Part shown: positions 17,663-62,996 of the stretch, in pieces
Layout of the letters: the number at the start of each line of letters is the position of its first letter
How positions within the stretch are numbered: position 1 is the stretch's first letter
From: an uncultured cyanobacterium
GTDB taxonomy: Bacteria; Cyanobacteriota; Cyanobacteriia; Cyanobacteriales; CAWCAG01
Assembly: GCA_963793425.1 (NCBI GenBank)
Contig: CAWCAG010000005.1
Location: forward strand, 288,001-352,000
Length of the DNA: 64,000 nt
Direction: 5' to 3'
The notes under the pieces: model-generated
Database searches by the model: none
The model's input: only the letters and a program-made list of their open reading frames with translations
Told to the model about the DNA's origin: nothing
Translations under genes and position numbers: made by a program

Positions 17663-18666
17663 ATGACTCAAGGTATATACACCTTAGCCAACGATGTCGT
17701 TTATGACCAACTTGTTGCCCTTCTTAACAGTATTGCAGTTAATGTTGGTGCAGAATTTCCGGTTCGTGTAGTTGCTTTTGATGAGCGCTTAGATAAGGTA
17801 CGCTCAGAAGTAGAGAAAAGAAAGAATGTTGAATTAGTTGAAGATCCCAGCTTATTTGTACCTTGGGAAGAATTTTCTGGGGAAGTTTGGCAAACCCATC
17901 CCTATGCCCTGAAGATGTGGCGAGAGAAGGGTATTGAAGGGGTCAATCGCTTAGCTTGTAATCGCCGCTACTTTGCTTTTGATGAACGGAGTGATTTTGA
18001 CCAGTTTATTTATTTTGATGCTGATGTTTTAGTGCTTAATTCCCTAGATTTTATGTTTGAGAAACTAGGTGATTATGATTTTGTAATTTACGACTTTCAG
18101 TACAAAGATCCTGGTCATATTTTTAATTTAGATTCTCCTCGGTTATTTGAAGTTTTCCCAGAAGAGAAAGTCCGTTCAGAAATATTTTGTTCTGGCTGTT
18201 TTGGGGCAAGAAAGGTATTTTTCCTCCCGAAAAAAGAGCTTGGTTAATTGAACAGCTTAAGCAAAATGAAGCAGAGGTGCTTTATTTGAACGCTCCTAAT
18301 CAATCTGTTTTAAACTATATGAGAATGCGAGGAGAAATTCCTCTTTGCAACTTATCTTTCACTTTGCCTCAAGAAGAAGTTACAGGTTGTGCGGTTACTT
18401 CAACCCATTTTGAACAAAGAGATAATTTACTTTATGATAAAGAGGCAAGAGTTACCTTTCTCCACTATATTGGTGTCTCTTCCAAAGCCTTTACTCGGTT
18501 ATGTCAAGGGGAGAATCTGGAAGTAGCTTATAGAGATATTTTCTTACATTATCGCTATCTTCACGAACCTCAAAATCGCCCTCAATTTACTGGCAAACCT
18601 CAACCGATTAATCCACCTCCTAGTTTTCAAACTAAAGTGTTAAAAAAATTAGGTTTGAAAAAGTGA
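17663..18666 (+). CDS. Npun_R2821/R2822-like glycosyltransferase-fold protein, split by a frameshift in a G-run at ~18205
   Basis: GIYTLANDVVYDQLVALLNSI, FDAD motif, FLHYIG; two overlapping ORFs form one paralog of the next gene. Confidence 0.75.
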
Positions 18667-38841: not shown

Positions 38842-41800
38842 ATGGCAGAATCACTAGATAATAGCAATACTTCTTTTTATGGGGAAGAAAGTCTTTCTTC
38901 TTCAAAACCGCTTGGATTACAGAATCCTCTAGTACCTTCTGCCCCCCTCGGACAAAGTTTTCTTTCTCCCCAATTTCTTTCCCCTGTAGCAAGAGAACCC
39001 TTAGTTAATCAACAGCTACTACAATTAAAGCCCAGAGAAGCTAACGAAGGTTTAATCAGTGAGTCAAATCCTTTAATAGAATCAGGGGCGATCGCACCAC
39101 AATCAGCAATGCCCCAAGCATTAGCAAGTCAAGCAACAGCTACAGCCTCTTCACCTATAAGTGACACATCTATTTTTGAAACGGCTTCTTCAAGTTTACT
39201 TCAAGCATTTCCCCAAGAAGAATCAGCGACGACATCACCTGAAAGCGTAGCAAATTCTGCTGTTTTAGCAACGAGTTCAGTAACTGAATCACTAATTCAA
39301 GCATCTCCTCAACAAGAATCTACCTCAATATCTCCAGAAAGTGAAACTTCTTTAACTTCATCTATTGATGAACAAACATCAGTAACTGAACCATTAATTC
39401 AGGCTTCTCCAACACCACCAGAAAGTGAAACTTCTTTAACTTCATCTATTGCTGAACAAACATCAGTAACCGAACCATTAATTCAGGCTTCTCCAACATC
39501 TCCAGAAAGTGAACCTTCTTCGACTCCATCTATTGCTGAAACAACATCAGTAGCTGAACCATTAATTCAGGCTTCCCCTCAACAAGAATCTGCCTCAACA
39601 CCTCTAGAAAGTGAAACTTCTTTAACTCCATCTATTGACGAACAAACATCAGTAACTGAACCATTAATTCAAGCTTCTCCAACATCTCCAGAAAGTGAAC
39701 CTTCTTCGACTCCATCTCTTGCTGAAACAACACCAGTAACTGAACCAATAATTCAAGCTTTCCCTCAACAAGAATCTGCCTCAATATCTCCAGAAAGTGA
39801 ACCTTCTTTAACTCCATCTATTAATGAACAAACATCAGTAACTGAACCATTAATTCAGGCTTTCTCAACAAGAATCTGCCTCAACACCACCAGAAAGTGA
39901 AACTTCTTTAACTCCATCTATTGATGAACAAACATCAGTAACTGAACCAATAATTCAAGCTTCTCCAACACCACCAGAAAGTGAAACTTCTTTAACTCCA
40001 TCTATTAATGAACAAACATCAGTAAATGAACCATTAATTCAGGCTTCTCCAACACCACCAGAAAGTGAACCTTCTTCGACTCCATCTATTGATGAACAAA
40101 CATCAGTAAATGAACCATTAATTCAAGCTTCTCCAACACCACCAGAAAGTGAAACTTCTTTAACTCCATCTATTAATGAACAAACATCAGTAACTGAACC
40201 ATTAATTCAAGCTTCTCCAACATCTCCAGAAAGTGAACCTTCTTCGACTCCATCTATTGCTGAAACAACATCAGTAGCTGAACCATTAATTCAGGCTTTC
40301 CCTCAACAAGAATCTGCCTCAATATCTCCAGAAAGTGAAACTTCTTTAACTCCATCTATTGACGAACAAACATCAGTAACTGAACCATTAATTCAGGCTT
40401 CTCCAACACCACCAGAAAGTGAAACTTCTTTAACTTCATCTATTGATGAACAAACATCAGTAACTGAACCATTAATTCAGGCTTTCCCTCAACAAGAATC
40501 TGCCTCAACATCTCCAGAAAGTGAAACTTCTTTAACTCCATCTATTAACGAACAAACATCAGTAACTGAACCATTAATTCAGGCTTTCCCTCAACAAGAA
40601 TCTGCCTCAATATCTCCAGAAAGTGAAACTTCTTTAACTCCATCTATTGATGAACAAACATCAGTAACTGAACCATTAATTCAGGCTTCTCCAACACCAC
40701 CAGAAAGTGAACCTTCTTCGACTCCATCTATTGCTGAAACAACATCAGTAGCTGAACCAATAATTCAGGCTTCCCCTCAACAAGAATCCGCCTCAACATC
40801 TCCAGAAAGTGAAACTTCTTTAACTCCATCTATTGCTGAAACAACATCAGTAACCGAACCATTAATTCAGGCTTCTCCAACACCACCAGAAAGTGAAACT
40901 TCTTTAACTCCATCTGCTGCTGAAACAACATCAGTAACCGAATCATTAATTCAAGCTTCTCCTCAACAAGATTCTGTATCAACACCTCCAGTTAGCGAAA
41001 CTTCTTTGACTTCATCTGTTGCTGAAACAACATCAGCAACCGAACCGATAATTCAAGCTTCCCCTCAACAAGATGCTGCATCAACATCAGCAGAAAGTGA
41101 AACTTCTCCAAGTTCATCAATTAATAAACAAACATCGGTAACTGAATCATTAATTCAAGCTTCTCCTCAACAAGATTCTGTATCAATACCTCCAGAAAGT
41201 GAAACTACTTCACCTCCATCTGTTGCTGAAACAACATCAGTAACTGAACCAATAATTCAGGCTTCTCCGCAACAAGATGCTGTATCATCATCTCCATCTA
41301 GTGAACCTTCTTTAACTCCATCTATTAATGAACAAACATCAGTAACTGAACCAATAATTCAGGCTTCCCCTCAACAAGATTCTGTATCAATACCTCCAGA
41401 AAGTGAAACTACTTCACCTCCATCTGTTGCTGAAACAACATCAGTAACTGAACCAATAATTCAGGCTTCTCCGCAACAAGATGCTGTATCATCATCTCCA
41501 TCTAGTGAACCTTCTTTAACTCCATCTATTAATGAACAAACATCAGTAACTGAACCAATAATTCAGGCTTCCCCTCAACAAGATTCTGTATCAATACCTC
41601 CAGAAAGTGAAACTACTTCACCTCCATCTGTTGCTGAAACAACATCAGTAACTGAATCAATAATTCAGGCTTCCCCTCAACAAGATTCTGTATCAATACC
41701 TCCAGAAAGTGAAACTACTTCACCTCCATCTGTTGCTGAAACAACATCAGTAACTGAACCAATAATTCAGGCTTCTCCGCAACAAGATGCTGTATCATCA

Positions 41801-45314: not shown

Positions 45315-46199
45315 ATGTCTCTTCTAAACAATGCTATCGAGTCAATACAGGTAGGTGTAGAAGACTATCTTAATCGTGACAAAAAGAGATATCCATCTGC
45401 TGTAAGAAATATTTGTGCGGGGATTCTCCTTCTGTACAAAGAGAAGTTATACCGGCTGTCTCCCTCACATGACAAGGAAGTTTTAATAAAAAAGGATATA
45501 AGGCCAGTTTATGATGACACAAAAAATATCACTTTCATAGGTAAGGGGAAGAAAACAGTAGATGTTTACGAAATAAAAGAAAGATTTAAGAGTTTAGACG
45601 TTGAAGTTGATTGGAAAAAGTTTGAGGAGCTAAATAAACTTCGCAACAATATAGAGCATTACTATACAGATAAATCCCCTGAAGCTATTCGAGAGGTCAT
45701 TGTTAAATCGTTTCTTCTGATTCGAGATTTCATTAGTGAATCCTTAAAAGAAGAACCTATTAACGTTCTTGGAAAGTAATGCTGGCAGGCATTGTTAGAC
45801 ACAACGAATGTATATTCAGACAGAAGAAAAAGCTTGCAGACAAACATTCGAGAAATGTGGTTTTGAACCCCAGGTATTAGAGCAGATTCTAGAAAAAATG
45901 GAGTGTCAGTTTTGTGGTTCAGATTTGATTAAGGCTGAAGATGAATATGACGCTTTTAATTCGTTGATTTGTTGCTCATGTGATAAGCCTCTTGAAATTA
46001 AGGATGCAATAGAAGAAGAAAGGCTGTCATATGATGACTCCGAAACTGAAGGGAGTTTGGCATCCTGCAATAGTTGTGAAAGTACAGACTCTGTAGTAAA
46101 GCTAGACGACAAATGGATTTGCCTTTCCTGCAATACAATTCATGATGAAGCAGGGCCTTGCGGATACTGCCATGAGTTCATTGCAGGAGATTTAAAAGA
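45315..46199 (+). pseudogene. HEPN-motif protein with C-terminal CxxC zinc-finger repeats; internal stop, frameshift and IS1 truncation
   Basis: LRNNIEH (R-X4-H); TAA at 45777; Cys-rich second ORF ends at the IS1 terminus. Confidence 0.6.
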
Positions 46200-46583
46200 G
46201 GCGTTGCTGAATTAAGGGATGAATGAAGTAGGAATGGGAACATCCCAGAATTTGAGATAGTGAATTAGCAATCGGATAGAATGCTTGAGCATTTCTACTG
46301 ACTTGGAATAACATAAGGTCTTACGATGCAAGCGAGCTAAATAGTGTCTCAATCGAGTATTTTCACCTTCTACTCGTGTCATGTAGGTTTTAGAGATAAT
46401 TTGGTCTCCTTCTCGAATAAACTGAGGATAAACACTCCAACCATCGGTGACATAGAAATAACATCGCCCTAGACTTACAATTGCCCATAAAGGTTTAAAA
46501 GTTTCAGCACTATGGTCTCCCAATACCCAACCTAAAATGCCTCTTTGGAAGTGATTGACTGCTGTCCAGAGCCAGATTTTGTT

Positions 46584-60239: not shown

Positions 60240-61571
60240 TTACTCCTGCCATCCTCGCATTTTACCAGGATTAAGTAACCCAAAAGGATCAGCTAATTTT
60301 TTGAAATTTAGTTGTTGATTATCTATAGTCTTTTTACCACCATCTTCCAAAATATAGGTATGGGGATTAGCGATAAATACTCCTTGATTTTCGTGGTAAG
60401 TAATAATTTCTTGTAAGCGCTCTTCTGTTGTATAACGGACTAATTGTAGCCCTCCTGCTACCCCTCTACCTTGGGAGCGCATAAATTCTAGATGAATCAT
60501 AACTTCTTCACCGAAATGTTCGTACATTTGCTCCACTGATTTTAGTTGAGGATCGTAGGGAAAAACACTCTGTAAATAGGTTAAATCATGATCAGCACTA
60601 CGACCATGAAGAGTGGTATGATTCCAAGTGAATTCTGCTAAGCTGGTTCCTTTTTTCGCTTCTGTAGCAGATTTTTGATAGGTAATTTCTCCATGATATT
60701 CTGCTACTAAACTTTGTAAAGGTTCTAAACAGCTTTCGGCCACCATTAATAAGGCACAGTGTTCCCCATTAGGAAGATAATCTTGCAAAGGGGTAAAGTA
60801 GTTAGGAATTGGTGAAGCATGGATACTAATTAACTTTTTAATTAAACCATCTGCATCTGTCAAGGCCTGCCCAAACTTAGCTGCATCCATAAAGTTACTA
60901 AAAGTGACAATTATTTCTGCCCAAGGATAAGCTAAAGCAAGGGGAATTTCTAATTGAGTAATGATGCCATTTGTACCATAAGCGTGGTTGATTTTTTGAA
61001 CTTCATCTCCTCGTAGCTCTAAAATTCGTGGCTCCTTTTCTAAAGTAACCACCTTAACTGCCAAAACATTGCCGCGATCGCTTAATCCTCCATAATTAAC
61101 TGAACCAATTCCCCCACTACCACCACCAATAAACCCCCCAATCGTTGCTGTACGATAAGTAGATGGGTACATTCGCAACTCCCAACCAATCTCCCTTGCT
61201 TGCTTATCAAATGCCGCCAGTCGCACCCCTGGTTCAACCCAAGCAACTCCTGGTTTAAGGTCAACTATTTTGTTCATTTTCGTAGTATCAAGAACAACTC
61301 CTCCTTGCAAAGGAACACACTGTCCATAATTTCCTGTACCTGCTCCTCTTACAGTTAAAGGAACTCGATATTTGACACAAACTTTGGCTATTTGTATAAC
61401 TTCTTTTTCATTACTAGGACGTACTACGACATCTCCTCTTTTATCTTCTAACAGAGGTTGTAATACGGGGCTAAAATGATAGTAATCTAAAGAAAGTTTG
61501 GCAACGCTATCAGGTTCAGTAATAGTTTCAATGCCATCAAGTTCAGTAGTAAATTTATCCCAGTTAGTCAT
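60240..61571 (-). CDS. FAD-binding oxidoreductase (GlcD/PCMH type)
   Basis: RGAGTGNYG, ATIGGF, DPFGLLNPGK. Confidence 0.9.
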   Translation of the reverse strand: MTNWDKFTTELDGIETITEPDSVAKLSLDYYHFSPVLQPLLEDKRGDVVVRPSNEKEVIQIAKVCVKYRVPLTVRGAGTGNYGQCVPLQGGVVLDTTKMNKIVDLKPGVAWVEPGVRLAAFDKQAREIGWELRMYPSTYRTATIGGFIGGGSGGIGSVNYGGLSDRGNVLAVKVVTLEKEPRILELRGDEVQKINHAYGTNGIITQLEIPLALAYPWAEIIVTFSNFMDAAKFGQALTDADGLIKKLISIHASPIPNYFTPLQDYLPNGEHCALLMVAESCLEPLQSLVAEYHGEITYQKSATEAKKGTSLAEFTWNHTTLHGRSADHDLTYLQSVFPYDPQLKSVEQMYEHFGEEVMIHLEFMRSQGRGVAGGLQLVRYTTEERLQEIITYHENQGVFIANPHTYILEDGGKKTIDNQQLNFKKLADPFGLLNPGKMRGWQE

Positions 61572-62310
61572 AAAAAAGTAACTTTAAATTTTGTGCTTAA
61601 TTATCTTGGCACTAATGTTAAACTACAAATAGTAAGAAGCGCTAATTTGGAGTTTAAGGCTATGGCTTCTCCCTTTCCAGGAATGGATCCTTATCTGGAA
61701 CATCCCAATTTCTGGCCAGAAGTACACAGTCGCTTAATTGTGGCGATCGCTGATGCTTTAGTTCCTCAAGTACGTCCTAAATACAAAGTTGCTATTGAAA
61801 AGCGCATCTACCAAATTACCAGTAACAACGATGATAATTCCTTATTAGTTGGTATTCCTGATGCTGCAGTTACACATCAATCTAATCTATCTAAAATTAA
61901 TGATTCTGATGTCGCAGTTACTTCTGTCAAGACAAAACCCGTCAAAGTTTTCATCCCAATGTTAGAAGAAATTAAACAAGCATATCTAGAAGTTAAGGAT
62001 TTGGCAACAGGCAAAGTAATTACGGCAATTGAAGTTCTTTCTCCGGTTAATAAACGTTCTGGCGAAGGAAGAGAAGCTTACCTCAAAAAGCGTCAGCAAA
62101 TTTTAGGAAGCTTAACTAATTTTGTAGAGATAGATTTGCTGAGAGGATGGCAAGCAATGCCAATCTTAAATAATGATATCAACGTAGATTACAGAGTTTT
62201 AGTTAGTCGTACACAACAGCGTCCTCGTGCTGACTTATATGCTTTCAATCTTCCTGAAGAGCTACCCACTTTTTCTTTGCCTTTATGTTCTGAAGATATA
62301 GAGCCATAAG

Positions 62311-62715
62311 TTATACAGACATTGACCCATGAAGATTAAAGCGAGCATTGATATCAAAATTCGTGAAGAATTGAGTTCTCGTAAAATTGAGTTCGATATT
62401 GATCATACTGGAAGAATCTTGGTACACGAATTTAGAATGGACCTAGCTGCAAAAATGGGTATGGCGTATGTTGCCCCACCCAAATCGGTGCCTGATGGTG
62501 TATTGCCGGAGGTTATTATTTCTGCTCCTTGGGTTTTTTGCGTATTTGTTGTGAATAATCGAGCAGTTATTATTGAGCTAGGAGTGTATGCAATTGAAGG
62601 TGAGATTAAGGACTACTATCACGATAGGCGAGCTGTATAACAAATCGATGCAGTTGTCCCGATATGTGTCTTCACTTCGCATCAGCGCCGCACAGCGGGC
62701 AGCTGATCTCAATCG
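62311..62715 (+). mobile_element. Integron gene cassette integrated at a secondary GTT site
   Basis: G^TTATAC at the 5' junction is complementary to GTATAAC; ORF plus attC; removal restores the host frame. Confidence 0.85.
62329..62640 (+). CDS. Cassette-borne hypothetical protein (103 aa)
   Basis: ATG 18 nt into the cassette; stop codon lies within the attC inverse core. Confidence 0.75.
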   Translation: MKIKASIDIKIREELSSRKIEFDIDHTGRILVHEFRMDLAAKMGMAYVAPPKSVPDGVLPEVIISAPWVFCVFVVNNRAVIIELGVYAIEGEIKDYYHDRRAV

Positions 62716-62721
62716 TTGATT
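62635..62721 (+). other. attC recombination site
   Basis: R'' GTATAAC, L'' GAT(G)CAG, extra T bulge, L' CTGATC, R' GTTGATT. Confidence 0.85.
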
Positions 62722-62996
62722 TGCAAGTAATATTTAACTAAGTTTATGAGAGGACAGGTTATGATTATCAAATTGATTATACATCTGAAACTTCACCTCC
62801 TTTAACCGATAATTATCAAGCTTGGACAACAAAGATTTGACAACATAGCAATGAAGCGATCTAGATTTTCTCAAATTGCTAAGCTGTGGAATAAAAAACA
62901 TTTTAGTTAACGATAGTCATTATGAGTCAAAATTGGTATGAAATTTGGATTAATGAATCCAACAGAAATTCCTTATGTAATGATAAATAATGATAA

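Follow-up and report, generated by a model that had tools for sequence, protein, structure and literature searches.

We suggest that a 405-bp insert in a DUF4058 gene of this uncultured cyanobacterium is a solitary integron gene cassette (SALIN), which very probably entered the gene through attC x attG recombination by an integron integrase. The gene lies in the window, that is, the whole stretch of 64,000 nucleotides that was analysed. In brief, the cassette would consist of a putatively promoterless gene of 103 aa and an 87-nt attC of cyanobacterial type. An integron integrase would recombine the folded attC with an ordinary genomic G^TT site (the caret marks the crossover), and the expected product is G^TTATAC ... 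attC ... G^TT. The catalyst would have been an IntI, which we infer acted in trans. This enzyme may have been supplied transiently, may since have been lost, or may have acted in a donor strain, with the interrupted allele later acquired through homologous recombination. The cassette gene has the same orientation as the DUF4058 gene and would be transcribed from the promoter of its host gene. We assign the insert to the SALINs because its own genome has no intI and a genome of the same family has an intact one.

The empty-site search used positions 61600-62900 of the window as query against 61 genomes, namely the window's own and 60 relatives. An orthologue was found in the sole genome of the same genus, G001, where the DUF4058 gene is uninterrupted. 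The sequences corresponding to window positions 61600-62311 and 62715-62825 abut in G001, with an overlap of two bases. In a MAFFT alignment read by hand, G001 reads ...GAA CCT TTA GTA GAT TTA CAA GCA ATA TTT AAC CAG ATT TAT... at the site, and the window reads ...GAG CCA TAA G[405 bp]TT GAT TTG CAA GTA ATA TTT AAC TAA GTT TAT.... The insert ends and the target have only GT(T) in common, so the break point lies somewhere in that GTT and not outside it. G^TT flanks the cassette at either end, and the comparison with G001 places the crossover between G and TT. It should be noted that G001 has GTA, not GTT, at the insertion site, which counts against the cassette reading. The insertion is real and precise. 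The first-pass annotation had delimited the insert as given in Table 1 and had predicted that relatives would carry an empty allele with boundaries at G^TT and no target duplication. This is what G001 carries, with no duplication beyond GTT, and the DUF4058 profile has no counterpart of the insert either.

The host gene, both halves and insert included, spans positions 61662-62840 (+), and the Pfam match of its N-terminal part covers 61662-62306. Identity to G001 at the DNA level is 90% before the insert and 78% after it, hence the downstream part is more diverged. Removal of the insert had been proposed to restore an in-frame DUF4058 C-terminus. The reading frame is indeed kept, but two in-frame TAA codons (Table 1) interrupt it. 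Because of these codons, the host gene is a pseudogene and would be dead even with the insert taken out. Other DUF4058 copies were matched in the same search of 61 genomes; the gene family is multi-copy and the host gene is dispensable.

The insert has the anatomy of a gene cassette, and the elements listed in the first-pass annotation all stood when they were read directly from the sequence. It starts with TTATAC (62311-62316) after the G at 62310 and has a short leader of 18 nt, followed by the start ATG at 62329. The insert contains a single ORF of 103 aa, putatively promoterless, whose stop codon TAA (62638-62640) lies inside GTATAAC (62635-62641), the R'' box. Read as its reverse complement, this G plus TTATAC gives exactly GTATAAC. 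In the circular form of the cassette, the R' box made of G62715 and TTATAC 62311-62316 pairs with R'' at 7 of 7 positions, including the conserved AAC and GTT. Between the R boxes, GAT[G]CAGTTG[T]CCCG (extra bases in brackets) pairs with CGGGCAGCTGATC, an imperfect L''/L' repeat separated from the R boxes by spacers of 5 and 6 nt, and this hairpin is followed by G^TT. The textbook consensus of the R boxes is RYYYAAC / GTTRRRY, and R'' and R' each deviate from it at one position. The G+C content of the insert is 42%, compared with 39.5% for the window.

Table 1. Features of the interrupted DUF4058 gene and of the cassette within it (positions are those of the window).
Feature	Position	Strand	Basis or remark
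DUF4058 gene, N-terminal part	61662-62309	+	PF13267, E 3e-88, profile positions 1-212 of 254
In-frame TAA closing the N-terminal part	62307-62309	+	directly 5' of the junction G; TTA in G001
Target-derived G, left G^TT junction	62310	+	alignment with the G001 empty site; break ambiguous within the shared GTT
Putative gene cassette, 405 bp (leader, ORF, attC up to the crossover G)	62311-62715	+	no counterpart in G001 or in the DUF4058 profile
Leader, 18 nt, starting with TTATAC, the cassette half of the R' box	62311-62328	+	sequence
Cargo ORF, 103 aa, co-oriented with the host gene	62329-62640	+	ORF list
Putative attC, integrated form	62635-62721	+	R2 17.5 bits, full length, top in window; R3 22.2 bits
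R'' box GTATAAC	62635-62641	+	
Spacer after R''	62642-62646	+	5 nt
L''	62647-62661	+	GAT 62647-62649, extra G 62650, CAGTTG 62651-62656, extra T 62657, CCCG 62658-62661
Variable loop	62662-62695	+	
L'	62696-62708	+	CGGG 62696-62699, CAGCTG 62700-62705, ATC 62706-62708
Spacer TCAATC	62709-62714	+	6 nt
Hybrid R' box GTTGATT	62715-62721	+	G 62715, TT 62716-62717
DUF4058 gene, C-terminal remnant	62716-62840	+	profile positions 223-253 over 62742-62837
Second in-frame TAA, in the C-terminal remnant	62739-62741	+	CAG in G001
Natural TGA of the DUF4058 gene	62838-62840	+	

A search of 401 sampled cyanobacterial genomes with TIGR02249 (integron integrase, cut-off 265 bits) found intI above the cut-off in 22 of them. 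No intI was found in the window's own genome, where the best match reached 52 bits, and G001 has no IntI above the cut-off. An intact intI, with an open frame of 359 aa scoring 438 bits, is present in a genome of the same family, G002. The window gave no second attC match, and with no intI in the genome the locus is neither a complete integron nor a CALIN. This agrees with the first-pass annotation, which had noted neither an intI nor an attC array in the window and had pointed to the rest of the genome and beyond as places to look for an integrase. Four public metagenome runs, all from one study, contain the locus. The filled allele is present in 4 of 4, and no contig among these runs carries the empty allele, indicating that the insertion is established in that population and is not a recent private event. 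No RNA run holding the locus was listed among the public runs.

These observations bear on where the recombination took place. There is some chance, which we would not put high, that the interrupted DUF4058 allele was made in an integron-bearing strain and arrived by natural transformation and homologous recombination of its flanks. A genome without intI next to an intact intI in G002, and a filled allele found in all four runs rather than a recent private event, are in favour of such a transfer; however, an intI or a plasmid that was once present and then lost would leave the same picture. A different history, in which the insertion is ancestral to the genus and the empty site of G001 results from precise IntI-mediated excision, is quite unlikely. 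G001 has an intact gene whose frame continues through the site, and no IntI of that genome exceeds the cut-off. Neither the DUF4058 profile nor the other matched DUF4058 copies are interrupted there, and one insertion is more parsimonious.

Some tyrosine recombinases match the integron-integrase model with both halves. Those at G001:C3:10321-11115 and 45678-46499 and at L051/L052 (G435:C2:96133-96951) score approximately 84-111 bits per half and lack model positions of approximately 179-239. They look like IntI-like Xer relatives that have no IntI-specific insertion. At another integron locus, L040 of G306, the stretch that separates intI from the cassette array (17683-17896, immediately upstream of intI) contains a 23-bp palindrome, TTATAYGGAA-N3-TTCCRTATAA, four times; the palindrome may be a candidate attI-region or regulator binding motif. 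A CRISPR array of nine repeats with 72-73-bp spacing is found at L042:3626-4265 (G387), approximately 14 kb from an integron integrase gene.

The attC models used here are home-made and differ from the attC model of IntegronFinder. No sequence of the window is part of any of them, and the training sites all lie beside true integron-integrase genes of other cyanobacteria. A tblastn search with one of the proteins above the TIGR02249 cut-off led to the annotated integron integrase on plasmid pB of Kovacikia minuta (NZ_CP083584.1), beside which five classical attC sites occupy intergenic regions of a gene array. Model R1 was made from three of these five sites and then found attCs beside intI of other cyanobacteria. 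Model R2 comprises 15 sites, and the broader model R3 comprises 20.

When R2 was run without filters on both strands of the entire 64 kb, its best match was at 62635-62721 (+), full length, with 17.5 bits and E 0.036; the second-best match in the window had 13.0 bits. The first-pass annotation had expected an attC covariance model to recognise this end of the insert, and the match covers exactly that site. R3 scored the same positions at 22.2 bits; apart from this site and two held-out attCs beside the intI of G002 (24.4 and 19.6 bits), no match in the 84 kb searched reached E ≤ 5. Over 505 kb with default filters, R3 gave four matches: the class 1 attC adjoining aac(6')-29, a positive control from outside the phylum, with 25.4 bits, the window site with 22.2 bits, and two background matches (17.7 bits). 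Held-out real attCs scored 15.9-33.9 bits with R2 and 19.6-25.4 bits with R3. The highest background scores, taken over 400 kb of the genome to which the window belongs, were 18.1 bits (R2) and 17.7 bits (R3). The R2 score alone would lack genome-wide significance because of that background match of 18.1 bits, which lies within a 1231-aa ORF and is without AAC and GTT.

The position of the match is more telling than its score. A match of at least 17.5 bits occurs approximately once per 0.5 Mb of the window's genome. Here, the GUU of the models aligns to 62715-62717, which is the right junction as mapped independently from G001, and the first base of the model falls on the R'' box holding the ORF stop codon. 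Since a match this strong occurs only about once per 0.5 Mb, the probability that it would land by chance on the junction base is roughly 1e-5. The case for an attC rests on this coincidence and on the model match, not on fold energy. A motif grammar that we derived by aligning the training sites has a single match in the 5.28-Mb genome, the window site, and gave 0, 0, 2 and 0 matches on four simulated genomes; it is only supporting, because it was written after the site was seen.

Other searches gave less. R1, narrow with its three sites, did not report the window site at E ≤ 10 and also missed a real site, L056:4527-4612. In a genome-wide search with R2, 150 of 1116 candidates were scored and none was reported, the window site itself being missed. 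A scan of 61500-63100 against Rfam 15, which apparently has no attC family, gave chance matches only (E 1.8-5.3). At four intI loci, a heuristic scan for R''/R' pairing did not single out the arrays, and a direct-repeat search found no attC families, returning a CRISPR array and palindromes. Two weaker matches of the models were also looked at. Positions 41207-41798 (-) of the window contain three identical stretches of 82 nt, at 204- and 306-bp spacing, with equal weak matches of 13.0 bits, which indicates a tandemly repeated coding or intergenic unit and no attC. At L071:12447-12520 (G000:C4:22447-22520, -), a weak match of 15.6-17.7 bits has an AGCGGA...CCGCU core and lacks AAC/GTT; it sits on a 44.6-kb contig that also bears the best Xer-like recombinase of the genome, and it is probably a chance match.

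Folded as an attC in the excised circle, the site forms 20 pairs, including one wobble. The energy of this fold, -10.4 kcal/mol, is 2.2 above that of the minimum free energy fold (-12.6 kcal/mol), and the alternative contains a local hairpin at 62680-62708. The hairpin energy is not unusual (z -0.5 and -0.25). Fold energy is uninformative here because some real attCs fold as weakly (-4.2 and -9.3 kcal/mol).

It is very unlikely that the insert is no integron cassette at all but a foreign gene with a terminator-like hairpin, inserted by microhomology or illegitimate recombination or as an IS200/IS605 or MITE element, whose likeness to an attC is due to chance. One could cite for it the modest scores, the equal-scoring background match under R2, and the ordinary fold energy with a preferred local hairpin, yet chance would hardly bring the GTT of the match onto the junction and its R'' onto the stop codon, with all 7 nt of R'' complementary to the opposite insert end. 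As for another mobile element, the 5.28-Mb genome contains the insert only once, and the insert has no terminal inverted repeats, no transposase, and an ORF that belongs to no Pfam family. IS200/IS605 was considered for the subterminal hairpin and the TCAA near the right end and was set aside, there being no transposase, no left-end hairpin and one copy.

The fine structure of the site follows that of the cyanobacterial attCs. The bulged G at 62650 aligns with a position at which all 15 R2 training sites have G. The spacer lengths (5 and 6 nt) and the 3-bp stem that precedes the bulge are the same as in L024:568-639, L030:1125-1240 and L056:4527-4612, and an R' box with GTTAT also occurs in G002, L040, L047 and L030. 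The inner L-box is without the CGGA...CCG core that is present in most training sites. Aligning 15 cyanobacterial attCs (from L056, L040, L047, L022, L020, L024, L028 and L030) revealed that the first L'' bulge is a top-strand G, and the first bulged base is therefore C on the recombined bottom strand in all 15. The attCs of Vibrio and of class 1 integrons have a bottom-strand G at that bulge. A bulged G on the top strand may be a phylum-specific trait of the attC-IntI pair.

The 103-aa cargo protein belongs to a rare small family. Searched among 1.84 billion representatives, it has 18 relatives at E ≤ 0.001 (19 matches with itself), most of them 90-112 aa long and encoded on short metagenomic contigs and in a few cyanobacterial or Sericytochromatia genomes. 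A profile search found the family in 2 of the 401 sampled cyanobacterial genomes, the window's own included, and contig scans located three homologue loci in genome contigs and one in metagenome contigs. A word-index protein search returned the window's own protein only. AlphaFold2, given an alignment of 17 rows, predicts the fold confidently (pLDDT 95.4, pTM 0.86). Structure searches with this model gave no known fold: the best match in the PDB had E 1.3 with Foldseek, the best Z in VIA-align wide was 3.1, and an Atlas search gave a best feature score of 0.78 and a TM of at most 0.43. Pfam, NCBIfam and PADLOC assigned no family, save for DnaJ-type matches to P0017, a chimeric-looking member. 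The first-pass annotation had called the protein unrecognised, and so it is in these databases. Two of the four metagenome runs carry G>T at 62602, which changes codon 92 from GAG to TAG and gives a 91-aa form (P0001). Several family members are naturally approximately 90 aa long.

We did not find the cassette-borne homologues that had been anticipated, none of the 4 homologue loci having a detectable attC. Run without filters, R2 detected no attC on L048, L049, L050, L053 and L054, where the best match (12.4 bits) is a plain hairpin, and R3 with default filters found none at the homologue loci. On L049, from a Pseudanabaena MAG, the homologue lies beside a PIN/HTH pair, between housekeeping genes. 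The homologue and the PIN/HTH pair form a small island (L049:2541-4410 and L050) whose borders are marked by a repeat (GTAAAGCGATCGC...CTTAAATTTAATTT) in three copies and by an 86-nt unit ending ATAAGTTAT in two; the leader of the L049 homologue resembles that of the window. These flanking repeats and the likeness of the leaders were considered as signs of an attC, but this did not resolve, and the attC models do not recognise them. Because the family otherwise occurs outside cassettes (four loci without attC, and the context on L049), one could speculate that the cassette is young. An ordinary cyanobacterial gene with a new fold would then have been joined recently to an attC, exported, and dropped in sense orientation into the host gene, where the TAA directly before the junction would let the host promoter drive its transcription and translation. 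We regard this as unlikely.

The locus is a natural, base-exact case of a SALIN with the empty allele kept in a congener, and it comes from a phylum in which integrons are sparse and from a genome that itself has no integrase. It suggests that cassettes of cyanobacterial type reach integron-free genomes and can knock out genes on landing, and it points to a small, confidently folding (predicted) protein family without a known fold match. SALINs are a published category, the picture of integron function is unchanged, and a specialist would not be surprised.

Cyanobacteria are listed among the phyla with integrons by Cury et al. (PMC4889954), who also mention insertion at secondary sites. Ghaly et al. 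(PMC8352920) describe attCs as taxon-specific and built an attC model for Cyanobacteria. Loot et al. (bioRxiv 10.1101/2022.09.11.507474) defined SALINs and counted 3400 of them in 21,105 complete genomes; from these counts and from assays of IntI1, IntI2 and IntI3 in E. coli, they report IntI-mediated insertion at attG sites with the consensus 5'-GWT-3' at the cut and avoidance of essential genes. Like these SALINs, the cassette in the window combines a single CDS with a single attC downstream of it, lies close to no intI, attI or further attC, and occupies an ordinary genomic site in a dispensable gene; its crossover triplet GTT fits 5'-GWT-3'. It differs from them in its cyanobacterial host and in its attC of cyanobacterial type, whose bulged base is a G when read along the coding strand. 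The window has TTGC where the E. coli hotspots have their right-hand CRGM motif, and here the event is documented in nature, by a congener that carries the empty allele.

The cassettes of cyanobacterial integrons, in the array of Kovacikia minuta pB and in that of G002, have the same attC architecture as the window: xxxTAAC, a spacer of 4-5 nt, L'' with T[G]CA, L' with xTGA, a spacer of 4-6 nt, and GTTAxxx, in 72-116 nt. In contrast to these arrays, the cassette of the window stands alone, its inner L-box is TTG[T]CCCG instead of CGGA, and its attC scores at the low end of the real sites. An older parallel is the aadB cassette, which Recchia and Hall reportedly described in 1995 as inserted at a secondary site in RSF1010. 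As in the window, one cassette was precisely inserted at a GTT-containing non-att site; that case concerns a resistance cassette on a plasmid in proteobacteria, whereas the window concerns an uncharacterised cargo on a cyanobacterial chromosome.
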